Below are positions 1 through 15,663 of a DNA stretch of 17,896 bases, in pieces. The translations under genes and the position numbers were made by a program. The stretch lies in the UHGV virus genome UHGV-0103875; one strand, written 5' to 3'. The first letter of the stretch is position 1, and every line of letters begins with the position of its first letter. The notes beneath the pieces were generated by a model, which made no database searches, was not told where the DNA came from, and worked only from the letters and a program-made list of their open reading frames with translations. Origin of the DNA: a virus.

Positions 1-298
1 CGCGCGTTGTTTCCGGTATATCGACTTTGATGTACGGGTTAATTTGTCTGGCGACAGTGGCAAGATCTTTATTCAGGAGGGCTTTGCATTCTGCTTCGGT
101 ATACGTTTTACCGAGCATGATGTCTTTTCCGGTGTGTCCGTGACATACAGTCCATACGCCAACGATATCTTTGTATGGTATGTAGCTGACACCTTCCAGG
201 CCATCGTCACCACTCGGACCAGTGATGAGCACAGACGCTATGGCAACAGCCCCACCACCAATAGCAGCAGCAACAGCCTTGCGTAATGATGGCGACAT
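1..298 (-). CDS. R: SAR endolysin (phage-21 R-type lysozyme), N-terminal part; gene continues beyond the window start
   Basis: Minus-strand translation from ATG at 298..296 reads [79 protein letters not shown]... with no stop down to position 2. Gly/Ala-rich N-terminal signal-anchor-release segment followed by a lysozyme catalytic region matches remembered phage 21 R. Start overlaps the S stop (TAATG). Confidence 0.85.
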
Positions 299-513
299 TA
301 TTCACCTCTCGCAGCCTTACGCTTGTCTTCTCTGATTTTGAAATACAGATTTGTCAGATAAGTGAGAAAACCCAACACAAGGCTTCCAAGCACTCCAATC
401 GCAGCCCACTGTGACGGACTGACCTGATCCAACCACTGCAAAAACCAGTATCCTGCACTACCAGCAGATGTTCCGTAGGCAATGCCAGTTGAGATTTTGT
501 CCATTGATTTCAT
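298..513 (-). CDS. S: Pinholin/antiholin S (phage-21 S21 type), dual-start motif: 71-aa form from 513, 68-aa form from 504
   Basis: ORF translates [71 protein letters not shown]. The M-K-S-M start gives two in-frame initiation codons as in S21 71/68. Two hydrophobic segments. GGAGG RBS upstream. Sits immediately 5' of the endolysin. Confidence 0.9.
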
Positions 514-561: not shown

Positions 562-625
562 GGAGAAAAAGAAGGCCGTAGCATAACTATCACTGATGAG
601 TTCAGGATAGCCAGTGGCTACGGCT
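562..625 (-). terminator. Candidate intrinsic terminator or structured element between the tRNA cluster and S (possible tR'-like)
   Basis: Minus strand reads GCCGTAGC-(34 nt containing nested CACTG...CAGTG)-GCTACGGC followed by CTTCTTTTTCTCCC. 8-bp outer stem plus pyrimidine/T-rich tail. No CCA, and too short and mis-proportioned to be a tRNA. Confidence 0.35.
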
Positions 626-631
626 CAGTTT

Positions 632-707
632 TGGTGCTGGTTAACGGACTTGACCCGCTACCAATTCGCTTACAAGGCGACCGCTCTACCATTGGAGCTA
701 AACCAGC
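632..707 (-). tRNA. tRNA, anticodon UGU (Thr-type by anticodon)
   Basis: Minus strand: GCTGGTT-TA-GCTC-CAATGGTA-GAGC-G-GTCGC-CTTGTAA-GCGAA-TTGGT-AGCGG-GTCAAGT-CCGTT-AACCAGC-A-CCA. Perfect 7-bp acceptor stem, D-arm with GG, anticodon loop CUUGUAA, encoded CCA. Atypical G at position 54 of the T-loop. Confidence 0.6.
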
Positions 708-712
708 ATGTT

Positions 713-787
713 TGGCGGGACAGCGTGGACTCGAACCACGATAAGAAGGTTAACAGCCTTCCGTAATGACCTTTATACGACTGACCC
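713..787 (-). tRNA. tRNA, anticodon GUU (Asn-type by anticodon)
   Basis: Minus strand: GGGTCAG-TC-GTAT-AAAGGTCA-TTAC-G-GAAGG-CTGTTAA-CCTTC-TTAT-CGTGG-TTCGAGT-CCACG-CTGTCCC-G-CCA. Canonical T-arm GGTTCGAGTCC, anticodon loop CUGUUAA as in E. coli tRNA-Asn, encoded CCA. One U:U mismatch at acceptor pair 4:69. Confidence 0.65.
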
Positions 788-790
788 AAA

Positions 791-835
791 TAAAAAAAAG
801 CCACCGTTGCAACTTAAGAGTCACTAACGGCAGCT
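791..835 (-). terminator. Candidate rho-independent terminator directly downstream of Q (possible tR'-like)
   Basis: Minus strand GCCGTT-(17-nt loop containing CTTAAG)-AACGGTGGC followed by a run of 8 T (plus strand AAAAAAAAG at 791-799). Lies between the Q stop (852) and the first tRNA. Confidence 0.4.
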
Positions 836-851
836 TACCTTCTAATTATGG

Positions 852-1370
852 CTAAATGGATAATTGCATGTCAAGGCTTTTAACAGCAACATGCTTAACT
901 TTCTCAACACGTTTACGCATTTTGAAAGCATTTTGCATTGGCTGGTACAAAACAAATAACGACGCTTTCAGGATGTCGTCAATTTCGTTTCTACAGGTTG
1001 CCAGTGAAGGTTTTCTCCATCCCTCGCCACCACGTCCACACATCTTGCGTGGCTTTGCAGTCGCGTGATAGTAGGATGCAATTGCTCGCTTAGATGAACC
1101 ATGAGCGTAGTAGCTGAGGAGGATGCCAAAGGCTTTCTTGTCAATGTACATGACGGAATCGACGACCTGAGAAATCAACATTCCATCATCATCATTACAC
1201 ATTGGCCTTGTCATAACTCTTCCCGGCTCTACGCTCTCCATGAACTTCGCTATTACGCTGCTCATGCGCTTTTCCAGACGACCTGAATAAACCCATGCGC
1301 CCCACAGTTCAAGCCAGCCATTCAGCCACTCGTGCTGCTCTTTGGTGAGGTTTAGTTCTCTTATGCTCAT
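852..1370 (-). CDS. Q: Late-gene antitermination protein Q (phage 21/82 Q family, not lambda Q)
   Basis: 172-aa ORF with motifs WLELWGAW and RPMCNDDDGMLI that match the remembered Q21-type pattern (WGAW ... RPxCxDDDxMxI). Located after ninH and before the lysis cassette. ATGA overlap with the ninH stop. Confidence 0.7.
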   Translation of the reverse strand: MSIRELNLTKEQHEWLNGWLELWGAWVYSGRLEKRMSSVIAKFMESVEPGRVMTRPMCNDDDGMLISQVVDSVMYIDKKAFGILLSYYAHGSSKRAIASYYHATAKPRKMCGRGGEGWRKPSLATCRNEIDDILKASLFVLYQPMQNAFKMRKRVEKVKHVAVKSLDMQLSI

Positions 1371-4702: not shown

Positions 4703-7168
4703 TCAGAATCCTCCTTTCTTCTTGGATTGCGGTTCCTCGCGTTCACGGCGGCGCATTTCAGCAGACTGTTGGTCTGTGTCATAAATAGCGCCATTTGCCT
4801 GAATGCAATACACCGTGCCGGTATTGCCATGACGATTGAGACGAAGGATTAGTTCGGTTTCACCAGGTGGAACACTGTCATCAAAAGCACCTTCACGATG
4901 GATCCCCACCCAATAATCGCAATCCTGTTCAATCTGCCCTGTATCTCGTGAGTCACTTGGTAATGGGCGTTTATTGGTTCGGCTTTCCAGTGCGCGGTTA
5001 AGCTGTGTCAGAAGCACAACAACGCAATCAAGCTCTTTGGCAAGGTTCTTCAGTCCTTTGGTGATCATGCCGTAAGCAAGGTCGTTGCGATCGGCCTTTT
5101 CAGCGGTCATTAGTGTCAGGTAATCGACCAGAATCATGCCAACACATCCTTTTTCTCGCTTGATTCGACGGCTTTCGCTGACGATTTGAGCCAGAGATAA
5201 TCCCGGCGTGTCGTCGATGTAAAGCATGTCGATTTCACTCAAGCGATTGGCTGTTTCGATCGCCCTGTTGAAGTCACCATCGTAATCACCCTGATAGCCG
5301 TCATCAGCGTCATTTGTCGCCGGAAGGTAAAAAATATTCGGGTTAACACCAGACTTCTGCCCTACCAGTTTTTCCAGTATCTGGTCACCTGGCATTTCAA
5401 GGCTGAACATCAGAGCGGGCTTTTTCTCATGCACTGCGCAGTTGATTGCCATCTGGCTGTATAGCGTGGTGTTGTGGGTTAGAATGTATCCGTCAGTTGC
5501 ATACAAATGTCTCTCGTGGGATACCATGATGCAAATGCACTCTTCACGTCCAATATACTCAACCGACGTGATAACAGGCGCACTTGTTTTGATGCGTTTT
5601 GCAGTGAATTTTTGCTTCAGGCGTGGAGATTTTATGTGTGATAGAACCTCATCAGGCAACCTGATTGCGCAAATATGGGCATCCATACCTTTGCGCATTT
5701 CTCCCTTATAACTGAATTTCGGCTCCTGTTTGGTTGTCATACGACACACGCCACCAAGAGAATGCACCAGCCGCTTTACACCATCTGACAGGAACTTGCT
5801 TGCCGAGCTAAAGCGCAGGGCATTATTTCCTTCAACCCAACCATCGGTTTCAAGTAATCCGCATAGAACATCAATACGAGTTTGCTTATCAGCAGAAAAA
5901 ATAATATCCGGGATAATTTTAATCTCTGACATCCGGCCGTAGATACCAAGCCGTTGCATAACCCGCGTAAGAGATAATTTGCGGCTAAACTTGTGAGATA
6001 GGGAGTAATCGCAGCCAGAAACATGCCTGACTTCAATATCGTCACCCACTTCAGATCTTACTCGCTCAATGATGTATGGTTCCGTCATGCTGATTCGTGG
6101 CGTACCTGCAAGATTTCCATCGCCAAGTAACGCACCTAACAGCCATGGGCTAATCCCTAAATCAACAGGCAATCCGAAGTCACCGCTAATACCAGGAACA
6201 TGAATGCGGCTTTGATAGCGAACGCATTCCATCATGTCCCGTAGGCGGCAGGTGTCTACAACATCAACGCCACCGGTAATACGGTTACTATGAATTTCCC
6301 ACAAATGATCATCCGCGCAATCAACGGTTCTTCCGTCAGAGAACGTAACTCGGTAAATATCTCGCTCCCCTTGAGGAAAAACTCCAGACACGAATGATGG
6401 TTGTCCATCCACTGATGCTAGGGAATCTCCAACACATACGTCACGAAATGTTGTCCATGAACCATCAGCAAGCAAAATGCGTGAATTAAGCGGTTGCGCT
6501 TTCCCCATCTTAGGGCGAGCGCCAATGACGAACAGAGAGCCTTTCACCAGACCTTTCGGTGACAGCATCCTGTCCAGAGATGGGATCCCTGTGCTCATTC
6601 CTCGTTGTTCGCCTGACGGGTCAAATCGCTTCTCAAGGTCGCTAACCCAGTCTTCCATGACCTCACCAAATGAGCGAAGGCCGCGACGCGATCCGGTTTT
6701 TGCATGGTCTGTCAGTTGCGTGAAAATCGCCTGAATAGCTTCGTACTTCTGCGTCGCAGTCATTCCGTTGCGGGAATAGAGCAATTCCGTCGCTTCAGTC
6801 ATGCGGTTGATGGCGTAGCGTTCCATTGCGGTTTCGCGAACCTGCATTGCATAGGCAACGATGTTTGCGGCGCTTGCCGTGTTCTTTGCGATCTCAGCGA
6901 TATAAGCAAAACCGCCAACAGACGCCGTTAACGATTTACGCTCCAGTTCACCGAAAAGCGTCAGGCCATCTACTGGCTTTTGCTCCCGGTGCATTCTGGT
7001 TATTTCTTCGAAAAGGATTTTGTGTGGTCGGCTGTAAAATGAATCAGGCTTCAGCATCGCCAGAACTTTCTGGACGCGCTCACTGCTGTCATCATCCAGA
7101 AGCAATCCACCAATCACCGCCTGCTCTGCCTCGATGCTATGGGGCGGCGCATAAAAATTATCGGTCAT
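4703..7168 (-). CDS. DnaB-family replicative helicase (P22 gp12-like, replaces lambda P) interrupted by an intein; ORF track gives a GTG start at 7183, first ATG is at 7168
   Basis: N-terminus PPHSIEAEQAVIGGLLLDD…FYSRPHKILFEE…VGGFAYIAEIAKNTASAANI is colinear with remembered E. coli DnaB. Walker A GARPKMGK is split from TTLYSQMAINCAV…MFSLEMPG by 343 residues. C-terminal half has DnaB motifs (ILVDYLTLM, LTQLNRALESR, GQIEQDCDYW). Confidence 0.85.
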   Translation of the reverse strand: MTDNFYAPPHSIEAEQAVIGGLLLDDDSSERVQKVLAMLKPDSFYSRPHKILFEEITRMHREQKPVDGLTLFGELERKSLTASVGGFAYIAEIAKNTASAANIVAYAMQVRETAMERYAINRMTEATELLYSRNGMTATQKYEAIQAIFTQLTDHAKTGSRRGLRSFGEVMEDWVSDLEKRFDPSGEQRGMSTGIPSLDRMLSPKGLVKGSLFVIGARPKMGKAQPLNSRILLADGSWTTFRDVCVGDSLASVDGQPSFVSGVFPQGERDIYRVTFSDGRTVDCADDHLWEIHSNRITGGVDVVDTCRLRDMMECVRYQSRIHVPGISGDFGLPVDLGISPWLLGALLGDGNLAGTPRISMTEPYIIERVRSEVGDDIEVRHVSGCDYSLSHKFSRKLSLTRVMQRLGIYGRMSEIKIIPDIIFSADKQTRIDVLCGLLETDGWVEGNNALRFSSASKFLSDGVKRLVHSLGGVCRMTTKQEPKFSYKGEMRKGMDAHICAIRLPDEVLSHIKSPRLKQKFTAKRIKTSAPVITSVEYIGREECICIMVSHERHLYATDGYILTHNTTLYSQMAINCAVHEKKPALMFSLEMPGDQILEKLVGQKSGVNPNIFYLPATNDADDGYQGDYDGDFNRAIETANRLSEIDMLYIDDTPGLSLAQIVSESRRIKREKGCVGMILVDYLTLMTAEKADRNDLAYGMITKGLKNLAKELDCVVVLLTQLNRALESRTNKRPLPSDSRDTGQIEQDCDYWVGIHREGAFDDSVPPGETELILRLNRHGNTGTVYCIQANGAIYDTDQQSAEMRRREREEPQSKKKGGF
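5471..6499 (-). mobile_element. Intein (343 aa) with LAGLIDADG homing-endonuclease domain, inserted in the helicase P-loop; candidate class 3 (Ala1, W-C-T triad)
   Basis: Insert begins AQPLNSRILLADGSW immediately after GARPKMGK and ends …ATDGYILTHN followed by Thr (HN/T C-terminal splice junction). Two LAGLIDADG-type motifs inside (WLLGALLGDGNL and LCGLLETDGWV). Block B has …DDHLW, block F …CICIMV, block G GYILTHN, consistent with a Trp/Cys/Thr class 3 arrangement. Flanks rejoin to GARPKMGK-TT, restoring a canonical GKT P-loop. Confidence 0.75.
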
Positions 7169-8057
7169 CGTGTTCACCCTCACGAACTTTCAGGTAGGTA
7201 TTATCGTTAAGCAGGAAATCAAATCCCTTTTTGTGCCAGACGGTTCCGCGCTGATGGTTTTGGCGCTCTTCGAACATCCATCGGCAATTTTCGCCTACGT
7301 AGCTCAAATAATTTCTCCAGTCCTGCATCGTGAACCCATGCCCGTCAAGCTGGCGGGTTATCACTCCGGCTTTGCGCCAGAACGTTCGGATCTGGTTTTT
7401 ACGCTTGTCATTCAGTGCGCGGATTTTTGGCGCTTCAGGAAGGATTTCGTGGTAAGCATCGACAACATCCTGACAGCTAACGGAAGGTTTTTTCTTGTCA
7501 GACTTTTTGTCTGCTGCGGTACTCTCTAATACGTCAGTATTAGAGATAATATTATTATATTCTTTATCTGTGGTAATTTGCTGGTAATCTGCTGGTACAG
7601 TATTGCTTGCAGGCATTGGTATTGCTGGCTTTGAGGTGGTAATTTGCTGGTAATCTGCTGGTACAAAATTTGACTGATAATCGTCATATTTCTCTACCGA
7701 GAAAACTGAGAATTTACCGTGTGAAACCCAGTCAATCATGCCGAGTTTTTTGAACTTTCTAAGCAGGTACTGAACGCGATCTGGTTTGAGTCCTGTTTCA
7801 AACGCCAGAGAGTTTCTACCGCCAAGTAGCTTCCCTCTGCCTACCAGAATTTCTCCTGCGTCAGTCATTACATACTCAGGCGTATGCTTTGCTTTGAGGA
7901 TTAAGTGAACCCACAGATGCGCAGCTTCTGCGTCCTTGTAAAACGGCACATCCATAATTTTACGGTGCAGCAAGGCATACCCCTTACCGCTGCTTTGATG
8001 CGGTTGTTGTAGCCTTCTGGCCTCTCTGGCTTCGGCTAGATTAGATATGTTACTCAT
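7158..8057 (-). CDS. Replication initiator (lambda O / P22 gp18 functional analogue) containing the origin iterons
   Basis: 299 aa; position between cII and the helicase. Central peptide repeat [10 protein letters not shown] x2 is encoded by the DNA iterons. RBS AGGAGAAAGG before ATG 8057. Confidence 0.7.
7541..7667. repeat. Candidate replication origin: direct iterons (TGCTGGTAA/C-type, two copies of a ~30-bp unit GTGGTAATTTGCTGGTAATCTGCTGGTACA) with adjacent AT-rich tract
   Basis: Unit GGTAATTTGCTGGTAATCTGCTGGTACA occurs at ~7573-7600 and ~7638-7665; each holds two TGCTGGTA sub-repeats; a degenerate copy ATTGCTGGC at ~7621. AT-rich stretch AGAGATAATATTATTATATTCTTTATCTG at 7541-7569 lies on the downstream side in the O reading direction, as in lambda ori. 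Confidence 0.65.
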
Positions 8058-8627: not shown

Positions 8628-8837
<210 letters not shown>

Positions 8838-8925: not shown

Positions 8926-9642
<717 letters not shown>

Positions 9643-9792
9643 TGGGCAAGGTGTTCTGGTCGGCGCATAGCTGGTGAAAAAATTATTTAATGCGGTGTAT
9701 TGGCTGATTGTAACCCCATGTAACATCTTGCCGTCACCATTTCGGTGGTTAGATTTTTAATAAAAAAAAACAAATGTATAGCAAGGTTTTTT

Positions 9793-10272
9793 ATGGATAA
9801 AATTAATTACCCACCCCTGTTTGAGCCAGGGTTCCATGACATGGATGAAGCTGGATTAAAATCGTATTGTGTCGATTGCTTTCCTTCATCATCCAGGCGA
9901 GGCATGCTATACTGTAATTTTATACAGCTACTCGAATCTATTCGAGAATTATCTGCTCAATATGGCTGTTTTACAGAAATATGGGTTGATGGTTCATACA
10001 CCACGTCTAAACCAGAGCCTGATGATATTGATATTTTGTTGGTATGTGACTATAGCAATATAAACTCAATACCTGTCATGCTTCGGGGCCGCGTCGATAA
10101 TTTGCTTGACCGAAACTACATCAAACAAAACTACAAAATTGATGTCCTACTACTCATGAAGAATTTAGATGACCCTAACTATGATTATGAGTACTGGCGT
10201 AGTTACTGGCGCGGTTGGTTTGGTTTTGATCGCAGTGAAAACCCGAAAGGGTTAGTGAGGATTTTTTTATGA
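9793..10272 (+). CDS. Hypothetical protein, gene A of the rex-slot cassette (~159 aa); possible minimal nucleotidyltransferase-fold protein
   Basis: First ATG at 9793 with AAGG six nt upstream; ORF track extends to GTG 9745. Contains WVDGSYTTSKPEPDDIDILLV, fitting the Pol-beta NTase pattern hG[GS]-x9-13-DhDh. Also CVDC…C. AT-rich compared with the flanking cI. Not RexA. Confidence 0.55.
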   Translation: MDKINYPPLFEPGFHDMDEAGLKSYCVDCFPSSSRRGMLYCNFIQLLESIRELSAQYGCFTEIWVDGSYTTSKPEPDDIDILLVCDYSNINSIPVMLRGRVDNLLDRNYIKQNYKIDVLLLMKNLDDPNYDYEYWRSYWRGWFGFDRSENPKGLVRIFL

Positions 10273-11201
10273 ATGATAAATCAATGTTTAAAAATTGCGA
10301 TAAACGCATTGATTTCATTCAAAAAGAAGTCGATGCAATGAAGCAAAACAAAACCAGGTCCTTTGCTGACATGCTTCTTTATCGCTCCATGGATTCTCAT
10401 CTGAGCGATTTGAAGGCCGAAAAATTAAAGCAAGATAGTCGGCACCCACTTATCGATTTTTTTGAGCTGCGGCTGAAAGGCTCTGAGGTTGACTTTGGCT
10501 CTATTCCTTTAGAGCTGCTTGGGGCTATTTCAACAAATCTTGCAGCGCTAATACAAAGAGCAACACACAAAATTGCCTCAGGCAAGGACTCAAAAAAAGT
10601 TCCCTACGACGTGAAAAGCTCCTTAAACCTCAGGCTGGCTGATTTATCCCCTGGGTCTACAAAATTGGGCGTCACCTTCTCTACAGGAATAGCAGAATTA
10701 GTAGAAACAGTACCCAGCAAGGCTGTAAAAGGCATATTCGATTTGTTGTTAAGCGATGACGACAACAACTTCATGAATCACGTCGCTGAAATTGGATACA
10801 ATTCCACTGTAAGCCTTAAGAGAATCGTAGAGGAATGCGATAAACACAACTTAACATTTGATGCAAGTTGGACCGGTCCATTTAGTAATGGCACCAAGGT
10901 GGCAACTATTGACTCCAATAAAATTAAGTACTTGGTGAGTAGACTTACATCAACCATTTCATCCCCTCCCATTACTGAAACGGTTACAGGCGAACTGGTC
11001 GTTCTATCCAAATATGGGAAGCTGGAGCTTGATGTTGGTGGTGAACATTTAAAGGCTTCCTATCCGATTGAAATGCTAGATTTAATACAAAAAAAACACA
11101 AGGTCGGACAGATTGTTTCTCTTTTAGTGGAGACTACTGAGATTCACAATGATCGCATAGGTCTGTACCGTAAAAACCATCTTGTTAAATCGGTTCTTTA
11201 A
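10269..11201 (+). CDS. Hypothetical protein, gene B of the rex-slot cassette (310 aa), no recognised domain
   Basis: ATG overlaps the gene A stop (ATGA). Soluble-looking, Lys/Ser/Leu-rich, AT-rich codons. No RexB-like transmembrane pattern and no HEPN Rx4-6H motif found by eye. Confidence 0.6.
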   Translation: MNDKSMFKNCDKRIDFIQKEVDAMKQNKTRSFADMLLYRSMDSHLSDLKAEKLKQDSRHPLIDFFELRLKGSEVDFGSIPLELLGAISTNLAALIQRATHKIASGKDSKKVPYDVKSSLNLRLADLSPGSTKLGVTFSTGIAELVETVPSKAVKGIFDLLLSDDDNNFMNHVAEIGYNSTVSLKRIVEECDKHNLTFDASWTGPFSNGTKVATIDSNKIKYLVSRLTSTISSPPITETVTGELVVLSKYGKLELDVGGEHLKASYPIEMLDLIQKKHKVGQIVSLLVETTEIHNDRIGLYRKNHLVKSVL

Positions 11202-13632: not shown

Positions 13633-13803
13633 ATGATTTACGCAATCGCGGGAGGCGCTCGCATGGGTGCCTTCCAACTAAATGAATCTTTACTTGAACG
13701 AATCACCCGTAAATTACGTGACGGATGGAAACGCCTTATCGACATACTTAATCAGCCAGGAGTCCCAAAAAATGGATCAAGCACTTATGGCTATCCAGAC
13801 TAA
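13633..13803 (+). CDS. cIII: CIII (FtsH inhibitor, protects CII); below the ORF-track size cutoff
   Basis: Translates MIYAIAGGARMGAFQLNESLLERITRKLRDGWKRLIDILNQPGVPKNGSSTYGYPD; the C-terminal 40 residues are nearly identical to lambda CIII. RBS AAGGAA upstream. Confidence 0.85.
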   Translation: MIYAIAGGARMGAFQLNESLLERITRKLRDGWKRLIDILNQPGVPKNGSSTYGYPD

Positions 13804-13885
13804 ATTCACTATCGCCACTTTTATTGGCGATGAAAAGATGTTTCGTGAGGCCGTAGAAGCCTACAGAAAATGGAGGTCAAAATGA
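13772..13885 (+). CDS. kil: Kil-like small protein (host cell-division inhibitor family)
   Basis: Internal ATG of ORF 13682..13885 gives MDQALMAIQTKFTIATFIGDEKMFREAVEAYRKWRSK, resembling the remembered lambda Kil N-terminus. Overlaps the cIII 3' end in another frame. Confidence 0.55.
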   Translation: MDQALMAIQTKFTIATFIGDEKMFREAVEAYRKWRSK

Positions 13886-14070
13886 TTCCGGTAGAACTGG
13901 CGAAAACTCCAGAGTTAAGTCGATTAAAAAGAGAATATCACATTGCTGAGGCTCGTTACTGGCGTAAAGCGGGAGATAAATCAAAGAAACAACTTTGTTT
14001 ATGGCAGGCGCAAAGAGAGCGCATGAATGAGCGCGAATTTCTTTCCTCCCCATCCGAATTACCATTCTGA
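13882..14070 (+). CDS. Hypothetical small protein (62 aa)
   Basis: ATG 13882 with GGAGG five nt upstream and ATGA overlap with the kil-like stop. Basic, helical-looking (…RLKREYHIAEARYWRKAGDKSKK…). Confidence 0.45.
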   Translation: MIPVELAKTPELSRLKREYHIAEARYWRKAGDKSKKQLCLWQAQRERMNEREFLSSPSELPF

Positions 14071-14078
14071 GGTGAATT

Positions 14079-14759
14079 ATGGGAACTGCGACATTAATAC
14101 TCGGTGAATCTGGCACCGGAAAATCAACCAGCATGAGAAATATCAATCCAGAGGAAGCAATACTTATAAAACCAATAGGCAAGCCGCTTCCATTTAAATC
14201 AAAAGACTGGCTGGCATGGGATGCCAGAGCAAAAAAAGGAACCGTAGTTACCACTGACAAATGGGACGTAATAGTTGCCGTAATTAAGCGTGCTCACGAA
14301 TACGGGAAAAGAATCGTTATTGTTGATGACTTCCAGTATGTGATGAGCAATGAGTTTATGCGCCGCTCAGAAGAAAAGTCGTTTGATAAATTCACTGAGA
14401 TAGGCCGTCACGCATGGGAGGTCATTAAGGCTGCACAGGATGCGCCTGATGACCTGAGAGTCTATTTTCTTGCGCACACCGAAGAAACTCCTATGGGGCG
14501 TGTGAAAATGAAGACTATCGGCAAAATGCTGGACGAGAAAATCACTGTCGAAGGCATGTTTACTATAGTTCTTCGCACCCTTACCCGTGATGACCAGTTC
14601 TTTTTCACCACAAAAAACAACGGTGCAGACACTGTTAAATCCCCAATGGGAATGTTTGACTCCAATGAGATTGATAACGATCTCTCTTTCGTCGATACCA
14701 CTATTTGTGATTACTACGGCATCAATAATGATCATCAAATTAAGGAAAACGCCGCATGA
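14079..14759 (+). CDS. RecA-like P-loop ATPase, candidate Sak4-type single-strand annealing/recombination protein
   Basis: Walker A GESGTGKST at residues 9-17 and Walker B RIVIVDDF; ~226 aa, the size of core-only RecA-like phage Sak4 proteins. Occupies the position of lambda Red. Confidence 0.5.
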   Translation: MGTATLILGESGTGKSTSMRNINPEEAILIKPIGKPLPFKSKDWLAWDARAKKGTVVTTDKWDVIVAVIKRAHEYGKRIVIVDDFQYVMSNEFMRRSEEKSFDKFTEIGRHAWEVIKAAQDAPDDLRVYFLAHTEETPMGRVKMKTIGKMLDEKITVEGMFTIVLRTLTRDDQFFFTTKNNGADTVKSPMGMFDSNEIDNDLSFVDTTICDYYGINNDHQIKENAA

Positions 14760-15343
14760 GCAACGTGATTTTTACTTATAACGAAGAAGCAGCACTGACC
14801 GCAGGGCAAGGTGGTTTTATTAACGAAACTGGCGCTCATATCATTACCATTACTGAAGCAGAACTAAAGCAATCAGAAAAAGGAGCCAAATTTATTGAGT
14901 TTTCTGGCGAATCCGACGACGGACGTAAAATCCAATATCTTAGCGTCTGTGTTCAGAAAAATGACGGAACGGAAAACAAATTTGGCGCAAATGTCGTTCA
15001 CGCCATGATGGGGTGTGCCGGGATTGGACAATTAACGCAGCATATGGTTTCCGCCAGTAAATTTGTTGCTCCTGAGTTTCACGGAAAGAAAATCGGGTTA
15101 GTGCTACAGAAAGTATTAACCACAAACAAAAAGACTGGTGCAGACAGTTACCAGATGGAAATACGCATCCCGTTTATTGCACAAACAGGTCAAACACTTA
15201 AAGAAAAGGCGGAAGGCAAGCAACCAGAAACTATCGCCAACATGGTTGCCAGCCTCAAAGATAAAGACAATCGCTCTAAAAACGTAAGCCAGAATCATGC
15301 AGATGATTATGGTTACAGCCAGAACGATTACCCTCCTTTCTGA
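14756..15343 (+). CDS. Putative SSB-like partner protein (195 aa) with acidic C-terminal tail ending DYPPF
   Basis: ATGA-coupled to the ATPase. The C-terminus …HADDYGYSQNDYPPF resembles the SSB interaction tail (DDDIPF). Body is not recognisably a canonical OB-fold by eye. Confidence 0.35.
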   Translation: MSNVIFTYNEEAALTAGQGGFINETGAHIITITEAELKQSEKGAKFIEFSGESDDGRKIQYLSVCVQKNDGTENKFGANVVHAMMGCAGIGQLTQHMVSASKFVAPEFHGKKIGLVLQKVLTTNKKTGADSYQMEIRIPFIAQTGQTLKEKAEGKQPETIANMVASLKDKDNRSKNVSQNHADDYGYSQNDYPPF

Positions 15344-15366
15344 TTACTGAAAATAAGGCTCCCATT

Positions 15367-15663
15367 ATGCCAGCGCCTCTGTATGGTGCGGATGACGCTC
15401 GCCGCTGTTCCGGCAATTCCATATCGGAGGTGCTGGAAAATATCAAGAATAATCTCGACGCGTTTCTTGCTCTGCCACCAGAAACAAAAGAAGAACGGAA
15501 GTACCGACGCGATATACAACTCGCAGAAAAACAGGAAAAAGACAGAATAAACGAAACATCAATCCGACCATTCCGCAAATTCACATATACCCACTTCCCT
15601 GAATATATCGACCCGCGCCTGCGTAATTACCGCTCACGCTATGGCGCTATCAGTAATGACTGA
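15367..15663 (+). CDS. Hypothetical protein (98 aa)
   Basis: Complete ORF in the same orientation as the operon; no recognised motifs. Confidence 0.4.

Follow-up and report, generated by a model that had tools for sequence, protein, structure and literature searches.

A phage-21-type tRNA-Asn/tRNA-Thr cassette in the late operon of the viral genome UHGV-0103875 and its likely role against tRNA-cutting defences

Two tRNA genes in the Q-to-S interval

The subject of this analysis is a pair of tandem tRNA genes located between the late antiterminator gene Q and the holin gene S of the virus genome UHGV-0103875, of which a stretch of 17,896 nucleotides (hereafter the window) was analysed. ARAGORN called a tRNA-Asn(GUU) at 713-787 and a tRNA-Thr(UGU) at 632-707, both on the minus strand and the only two tRNA genes in the 17.9-kb window; together they cover exactly positions 632-787. 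Rfam agreed with these calls, model RF00005 yielding 55.3 bits for tRNA-Asn and 54.7 bits for tRNA-Thr (E ~1e-9) against a gathering score of 29 bits. A preliminary description, made from the sequence alone, had reported tandem GUU and UGU genes in this interval and had raised the possibility that both might score below the thresholds of tRNA predictors; the two genes are confirmed, their scores are both well above threshold, and their strand is corrected here to the minus strand. On the transcript, tRNA-Asn is followed by the spacer AACAU, which accounts for the 5-nt separation noted earlier, and then by tRNA-Thr; the 3' CCA is encoded in both genes. The features of the region are as follows.

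852-1370, minus strand: late antiterminator Q, 172 aa (Pfam Phage_antitermQ, 1.1e-25), of the type found in HK75, CUS-3 and ST64T
845-874, minus strand: late promoter pR', with TTGACA and CATAAT 18 nt apart; it overlaps the end of Q and matches the sigma-70 consensus at 11/12 positions
788-836, minus strand: late terminator tR', a hairpin (798-836) followed by a U8AUUU tract (788-797); -20.2 kcal/mol, z = -4.2
713-787, minus strand: tRNA-Asn(GUU), 75 nt including CCA, with G73, U4:U69, U13:U22 and the anticodon arm GAAGG/CCUUC
708-712, minus strand: 5-nt spacer AACAU between tRNA-Asn and tRNA-Thr
632-707, minus strand: tRNA-Thr(UGU), 76 nt including CCA, with C14, G27.A43, U28:A42 and C31:G39
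563-624, minus strand: second terminator-like hairpin at 575-624 and its U-rich tail at 563-574, within the leader before S; -28 kcal/mol, z = -5.95
298-513, minus strand: S21-type class II holin (pinholin), whose dual start at Met1 and Met4 gives antiholin and pinholin (Pfam 'Bacteriophage P21 holin S', 1.4e-35)
1-298, minus strand: 5' part of a SAR endolysin gene that runs off the window; a SAR endolysin is annotated here in phage 21 as well

The promoter is identical to the annotated pR' of HK75, and its hexamers align with those of the annotated pR' of phage 21; by homology, transcription would start at about position 838. The terminator was assigned by folding and by homology to annotated terminators: save for one extra U in the U-tract, it is identical to the annotated terminator of phage 21 (PMID 1704887) and to Tr' of HK75, and its U-tract runs straight into G1 of tRNA-Asn. 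A simple terminator scan gave no match for tR', because its rule of a 3-8-nt loop is unsuited to this element, described earlier as a 9-bp stem with a long loop; in our folding tR' forms a single bulged 17-bp hairpin.

The gene pair had been described as directly followed by S. Its position in the Q-to-S interval stands, but S does not adjoin it: a 118-nt leader containing a strong hairpin separates the end of tRNA-Thr (632) from the S start codon (513). This hairpin (563-624) is kept in phage 21 and in the tRNA-less phage HK75, in which homology to the window stops just past its 3' arm; it is a candidate for a second late terminator, or for a processing or stability element. The translation of S opens MKSMDK, and the phage 21 annotation includes the dual start.

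Relationship to phage 21 and distribution of the cassette

When aligned from the terminator to the start of S, the window and phage 21 are approximately 97% identical. The two tRNA-Asn genes agree at 75 of 75 positions, and the tRNA-Thr genes at 73 of 76 (96%), the window differing from the phage 21 copy (tRNA-Thr21, whose sequence was taken from the phage 21 genome record) by A26G, G45U and U54G. This record (GenBank OL657228) lists an antiterminator, pR' with a Q-binding element, a transcription start, a terminator, tRNA-Asn, tRNA-Thr, S21-71/S21-68 and a SAR endolysin. Gene order, the 5-nt spacer, tRNA-Asn, a near-identical leader and the S21-type dual-start pinholin are all shared with the window; in contrast, Q and the segment containing the promoter and Q-binding element are represented in the window by another allele (HK75/CUS-3/ST64T type, 172 aa). 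Identity to phage 21 is lost upstream of the terminator, and neither Q21 nor its Q-binding element is matched in the window; the aligned window stretch comprising the 3' end of Q, pR' and the terminator is identical to HK75, whose Q open reading frame has the same length of 519 nt. Since the match to phage 21 ends upstream of the terminator, and an HK75-type Q and promoter lie beyond that point, the cassette is a mosaic module with its joint just upstream of the terminator. Both tRNAs also occur in HK446, where the Q ahead of them is of the lambda type.

The arrangement, including its lack of toxin cargo, is already known. The preliminary description was correct in that no stx gene is present, but this is not unusual, being the arrangement of phage 21; the novelty that it implied is not sustained, as annotations of this cassette exist for phage 21, Sf6, SfI, BTP1 and others. 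The only window-specific element is the private U54G substitution in tRNA-Thr.

The tRNA block was found in at least 120 IMG/VR viral contigs; the Thr gene matches 92 phage records, and the Asn and Thr genes occur together in 349 of 5,426 complete E. coli genomes. Both tRNAs are annotated in BTP1, SPN9CC, SfI, S135 and mEp506, and an annotated tRNA-Thr was found for Sf6 and Kapi1 in a search with the Thr gene only. The module is very common in prophages of E. coli, Shigella and Salmonella, and among the related loci listed its spacer reads AACAT 47 times and AATAT 45 times. According to the SfI paper, one or both tRNAs are present in Sf6, ST64T, PS3 and phage 21, and the papers on phages L and epsilon34 describe the same tRNAs for P22-like phages; the phage L paper states that processing of the tRNAs from the late mRNA is not established. 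A literature search found no published direct expression data for the pair in BTP1 or Sf6. As far as annotation is concerned we regard the window as largely settled: we read both genes of this known mosaic module as bona fide phage tRNA genes, and not as pseudo-tRNAs or integration sites.

The make-up of the cassette varies among phages. At the same position, the IMG/VR loci listed (L009-L128) include seven with tRNA-Asn only and seven with Asn and Gly(UCC), and Klebsiella-type phages such as Mulock carry Asn-Phe(GAA)-Thr-Arg(UCU), sometimes with Gly. HK446 (L135) has an intact tRNA-Asn(GUU) at 1021-1095 beside its Thr(UGU), called by both ARAGORN and Rfam; a 2026 preprint credits this phage with a single tRNA, overlooking its tRNA-Asn. 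In ST64T (L003), positions 752-820 hold a second tRNA whose acceptor stem is of the Thr type but whose anticodon arm differs and whose variable region is shorter; this tRNA scores 42 bits in Rfam and received no ARAGORN call. The phage L paper reads the second tRNA at the equivalent position as Leu(UAA); the published genome that it reports as 99.9% identical to phage L is taken here to be ST64T. Locus L122 (1279-1512) contains tRNA-Asn, a chimeric tRNA-Thr (its first 25 nt phage-type, the remainder that of host thrU) and, 3 nt further on, a glyT-like tRNA-Gly(UCC); the chimera suggests occasional recombination between phage and host tRNA genes. In HK75 (L136), ~190 nt of unrelated sequence (~670-870) replace the tRNAs. 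This replacement ends in the T-arm-like GCCGGTTCGATTCCGGC and gives a weak match to the tmRNA model (20 bits, below threshold), and immediately beyond it HK75 is again homologous to the window.

Conservation of the tRNAs and their non-canonical bases

Two-sided compensatory changes were observed in 8 of the 21 base pairs of tRNA-Thr and in 6 of the 21 of tRNA-Asn; none of 500 shuffles equalled these counts, and slid registers gave at most 3. Of the roles that had been considered for the pair, functional phage tRNAs is the right class, as indicated by the covarying cloverleaves and by the activity in vivo of the phage 21 Thr allele (Govande et al. 2025).

The tRNA-Asn of the window is the dominant allele, found at 81 of ~120 IMG/VR loci among the matches listed. 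The U4:U69 mismatch noted earlier in its acceptor stem is indeed present, but it is not a defect: the two bases are unpaired in 17 of 19 distinct variants, and since this state has been kept while the adjacent pairs 5:68, 6:67 and 7:66 covary, it is a maintained trait of the lineage and not a sign of decay. A strongly diverged copy from Atlantibacter differs in the D, anticodon and T arms and has an unchanged acceptor stem.

Further oddities are U13:U22 in tRNA-Asn and, in tRNA-Thr, a C at position 14, where A is near-universal, together with a G27.A43 mismatch and a correspondingly shorter anticodon stem. The mismatch is present in 21 of 23 distinct Thr variants; position 14, typically C in this lineage, varies between C, U and G. 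The conserved tertiary bases (U8, A14, G18-G19, U54-U55-C56 and A58) are complete in tRNA-Asn, and tRNA-Thr departs from them by C14 and G54. G34-U35-U36 and G73 are present in tRNA-Asn, as are G1:C72, C2:G71, G35 and U36 in tRNA-Thr; we take these bases to be the identity sets of the E. coli synthetases.

The G54 reported in the T-loop of tRNA-Thr, which corresponds to plus-strand position 654 of the window, was likewise verified (GGGUCAAGUCC in place of GGUUCAAGUCC). It is private to the window, being found in 1 of 102 copies in the loci compared, and a scan of the metagenome collection returned no match for it; of the two other differences from phage 21, A26G is a frequent polymorphism, and G45U recurs at one further locus. 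No phage record is more than 97.4% identical to the window tRNA-Thr, and no E. coli genome is more than 97% identical over the 301-nt block. U54 normally pairs with A58 and thereby shapes the T-loop. Folding predicts that G54 can pair with U60 instead, which may shrink the loop, and the Rfam score is ~7 bits lower for the window copy (54.7 bits) than for the phage 21/HK446 allele (61.5 bits). The private mutation probably weakens the T-loop to some degree.

A likely counter to tRNA-cutting defences

P2 OLD, long known for the exclusion of lambda by P2 lysogens, kills by cutting the host tRNA-ThrU(UGU) (Govande et al. 2025, PMC12445682), its cut sites being paired CNG motifs in the anticodon stem, and phage tRNA-Thr(UGU) genes rescue cells from it (Govande et al. 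2025, NAR gkaf874). The phage 21 tRNA-Thr protects, and resists cleavage by means of C28U/G42A and a shortened anticodon stem (PMC12445682). HK446 carries the same Thr(UGU) allele as phage 21, and expression of this tRNA from a plasmid provided strong counter-defence for several OLD-sensitive phages (bioRxiv 10.64898/2026.07.10.737580). Recent work shows that the Thr member of the cassette weakens the classic exclusion of lambdoid phages by P2 OLD. In the PARIS system, the host targets of the effector AriB are Lys(UUU), Thr(UGU) and, to a lesser extent, Asn(GUU); cleavage requires U36-A-A-U39-C40|N41, with a contribution of U16 shown for tRNA-Lys, and the Lys, Thr and Asn variants of phage T5 jointly neutralise the system (Belukhina et al. 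2025, PMC12409363). The relevant positions of the host and window tRNAs are listed below.

Host thrU: 27:43 A:U; 28-30/40-42 CUG/CAG; position 39 U
Window tRNA-Thr: 27:43 G.A; 28-30/40-42 UCG/CGA; position 39 G
Host asnT: 27:43 G.U; 28-30/40-42 CGG/CCG; position 39 U
Window tRNA-Asn: 27:43 G:C; 28-30/40-42 AAG/CUU; position 39 C

Resemblance to the OLD-resistant phage tRNA-Thr(UGU) extends to the UGU anticodon, C28U/G42A, the stem shortened by G27.A43 and C31:G39; the three substitutions that set the window copy apart from tRNA-Thr21, including G54, lie outside the anticodon stem-loop. The whole stem-loop (27-43) is identical to that of the tested phage 21/HK446 allele, from which we infer that the window tRNA-Thr would share its resistance and its capacity for rescue. 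At the AriB determinants, tRNA-Thr reads UAAG39-C-G41 and tRNA-Asn UAAC39-C-U41, with an A at position 16 (standard numbering) in both. C31:G39 was present in 6/6 phage Thr(UGU) sequences compared (window, Mulock, P7, P1-like plasmid, N4 and T5), as opposed to A31:U39 in the host.

We read the locus as a phage-21-type late-operon tRNA cassette in which tRNA-Thr acts as a nuclease-resistant stand-in, and assign this reading a probability of roughly 0.7. As judged by the anatomy of the region and by the annotation of phage 21, both tRNAs would be carried on the late transcript just behind tR' and made in quantity only upon readthrough mediated by Q. Host enzymes would presumably excise them, RNase P acting at the 5' ends and 3' trimming proceeding to the encoded CCA. 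Once a Toprim-family nuclease, P2 OLD or AriB, has cut the anticodon stem of the host tRNA-ThrU and so destroyed this tRNA, the phage Thr(UGU) would provide a nuclease-resistant substitute for the sole host tRNA that reads ACA. Its anticodon arm appears remodelled in three respects, with U28:A42 for C28:G42, the G27.A43 mismatch and C31:G39 for A31:U39; these changes would remove the recognition motifs, and late proteins could therefore still be translated. The tRNA-Asn would most likely play the same role for the weaker second nuclease target, and would also add late Asn-decoding capacity.

A more specific proposal for tRNA-Asn is tentative, and we consider it less likely than not: this gene would be a second nuclease-evading tRNA, U4.U69 and the remodelled stem would be evasion features, and the pair would form a minimal two-part counter, delivered late, to the Toprim tRNases of OLD and PARIS. 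The set with which T5 neutralises PARIS (Burman 2024; Belukhina 2025) has in common with the window the UGU and GUU anticodons, the loss of U39, a changed position 41 and A16. The window tRNAs, however, are 62-66% identical to those of T5 and are not accompanied by a tRNA-Lys(UUU); the window phage, moreover, is temperate, with late, Q-dependent tRNA expression. Pairs in P1/P7 and N4 have the same anticodons in the same order, set 2 nt apart in P7 and in a P1-like plasmid (ARAGORN). Their Thr genes are related to that of the window (82-84% identity) and carry C31:G39, whereas their Asn genes come from a separate lineage (59-64% identity, acceptor stem GAUGGUG, without U4:U69); the P7 Asn keeps U39, and the genomic context of these pairs differs from that of the window. 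The Klebsiella phage Mulock also pairs Asn(GUU) with Thr(UGU). The recurrence of the pairing in unrelated phages with a different Asn lineage suggests that the two anticodons are functionally linked.

Several observations weigh against an anti-defence role. With its private G54, the loss of ~7 bits and the possible pairing with U60, the window tRNA-Thr could be impaired. Expression of the pair is late and depends on Q, whereas OLD is triggered by early functions, and the Q gene itself contains one ACA codon and five Asn codons, so that native timing may limit protection. Thr(UGU) supplied from a plasmid neither rescued lambda nor fully relieved OLD toxicity, and HK446 evades OLD via the protein inhibitor Oad2. 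Countering the B185 PARIS system needs a resistant tRNA-Lys(UUU) (PMC12409363), and no tRNA-Lys was found in the 17.9-kb window, which is part of the phage genome, or in any cassette locus examined. As for tRNA-Asn, its anticodon stem is not shortened, and the published rule for resistance of Thr tRNAs is that motif change and shortening are both required (PMC12445682); furthermore, Klebsiella-type Asn variants retain paired CNG motifs, and the P7 Asn retains UAAUCA (U39). Finally, ACA is ~2-fold enriched, so plain codon supply also contributes.

Two related ideas were discarded. HK75, reported to be OLD-sensitive (bioRxiv 10.64898/2026.07.10.737580), has Q, pR' and tR' as in the window and was considered as a counter-example; it was dropped, as ARAGORN and the alignment show that this phage is without the tRNAs, and an OLD-sensitive phage that lacks the pair is in keeping with the anti-defence reading. 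The cassette variants with tRNA-Gly(UCC) were considered as an 'anti-OLD kit', for which no support was found: they keep CAG/CUG like host glyT.

The early-left operon of the window (13633-15663, plus strand) encodes CIII, a Sak4-like annealing protein, a single-stranded DNA-binding protein (SSB) and the anti-RecBCD protein Abc2 (PHROGs). By its Abc2 gene the phage would manipulate RecBCD, a pathway whose disturbance activates OLD.

Codon supply, decay and integration as alternatives

The ileZ-argN-argO cluster of Stx phages occupies the same niche, downstream of Q/pR' and upstream of the lysis genes. Its anticodons correspond to rare Ile and Arg codons, and it is usually explained as codon supply for stx and the late genes. 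The window pair differs from it in its GUU and UGU anticodons and in the absence of stx, and no sequence relationship was seen between the two. Codon usage was counted in the curated gene set of the window and in the late genes of 30 cassette-bearing loci. Per 1000 codons, ACA occurs ~7 times in the host, 15.0 times in the window, where it makes up 30% of the Thr codons, and 11.9 times in the late genes of the 30 loci. The host values are approximate, and so are the following fold changes relative to them.

ACA: window 2.1x; late genes 1.7x
Asn (AAC, AAU): window 0.9-1.4x; late genes 1.0-1.1x
AGA: window 6.1x; late genes 3.1x
AGG: window 4.2x; late genes 2.9x
AAG: window 2.6x; late genes 2.5x

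The enrichment of ACA, a bias also reported in the SfI paper, could mean that the tRNAs are kept for codon supply only, serving the ACA (and many AAC) codons of the late genes, and that their differences from the host tRNAs are neutral; the use of AAC for 24 of the 25 Asn codons of the major capsid gene, as reported in the phage L paper, points the same way. We nevertheless consider this explanation unlikely. The codon counts bear it out for ACA, at ~2-fold, but not for AAC and AAU: Asn codons are used at host frequency, and the SfI authors likewise found no Asn bias. AGA, AGG and AAG are all more enriched than ACA, yet the window and 95 two-gene Asn+Thr cassettes among those listed lack the matching tRNAs, Arg(UCU) being found only in a few Klebsiella-type variants. 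Moreover, the changes from the host tRNAs cluster at exactly the positions needed by OLD and AriB, and extra copies of the host tRNA-ThrU fail to rescue OLD toxicity whereas the phage copies do so. For ACA, codon supply can play a part, but the presence of a tRNA-Asn and the choice of these two anticodons are not explained by it. The earlier suggestion that the tRNAs supply AT-rich moron genes does not fit either, since this cargo (9745-11201) is in the rexAB position on the cI strand and the tRNAs are late and need Q.

Decay, also proposed earlier for both genes, does not apply to tRNA-Asn, whose mismatch is a lineage trait; it may apply to the Thr copy alone. Here U54G, together with G45U, would disable a copy that is unselected during the prophage state, making the window tRNA-Thr an early-stage pseudogene. 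Such an explanation is supported by the rarity of G54 (1/102 copies and no metagenome match), by the drop in the Rfam score from 61.5 to 54.7 bits, by the absence of phage records above 97.4% and of E. coli genomes above 97% over the 301-nt block, and by the predicted option for G54 to pair with U60 instead of forming U54-A58. It is, however, somewhat unlikely in our view: the score is far over threshold, all stems and the anticodon arm are intact, as are the adjacent tRNA-Asn, Q, S and the terminator, and G54 may be a sequencing error. In addition, the phage 21 allele is active in vivo despite its C14, and the Thr lineage therefore tolerates the loss of a near-universal tertiary contact.

A role of the tRNAs in making up for a host tRNA gene that prophage integration has disrupted, or as attachment or recombination sites, is very improbable, although the 2026 'OLD sentinel' preprint (bioRxiv 10.64898/2026.07.10.737580) makes a suggestion of this kind for the HK446 tRNA. 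The idea was rejected on position: the cassette follows a terminator within the late operon, well away from the lambdoid int/att position, and poor expression would be expected in the lysogen. Related phages insert in thrW or argU and rebuild these genes, not thrU or asn genes. The sole hint in its favour is the chimeric locus L122, in which the 3' part of tRNA-Thr matches host thrU and a glyT-like gene follows, and this is one case among the ~120 loci listed; beyond it, nothing points to the integration or processing signals considered in the preliminary description.

Other genes of the window

Two AT-rich genes (9745-10272 and 10269-11201, plus strand; GC 0.38-0.41) lie directly downstream of the lambda-type cI gene, in the rexAB position, and match both parts of the PADLOC candidate system PDC-M63 (A: 2.4e-41, DUF6932; B: 7.5e-45). 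The rexAB genes of lambda are expressed in the prophage, and by analogy the AT-rich pair would be expressed in the prophage and not with the late operon.

A gene at 4703-7183 on the minus strand encodes an 826-aa replicative helicase of the DnaB family (Pfam DnaB, DnaB_C) that is interrupted by an insert of ~330 aa. The insert matches LAGLIDADG-type homing endonucleases and has intein-like ends (C... ...HN), and it looks like an intein in a lambdoid phage helicase gene.

The genes of the immunity region are at 8628-8828 (minus strand) and 8929-9642 (plus strand). Judging by their translations, they appear to encode what are presumably lambda's own Cro and cI. If so, the phage appears to be a lambda-immunity hybrid with a phage-21-type lysis and tRNA module.

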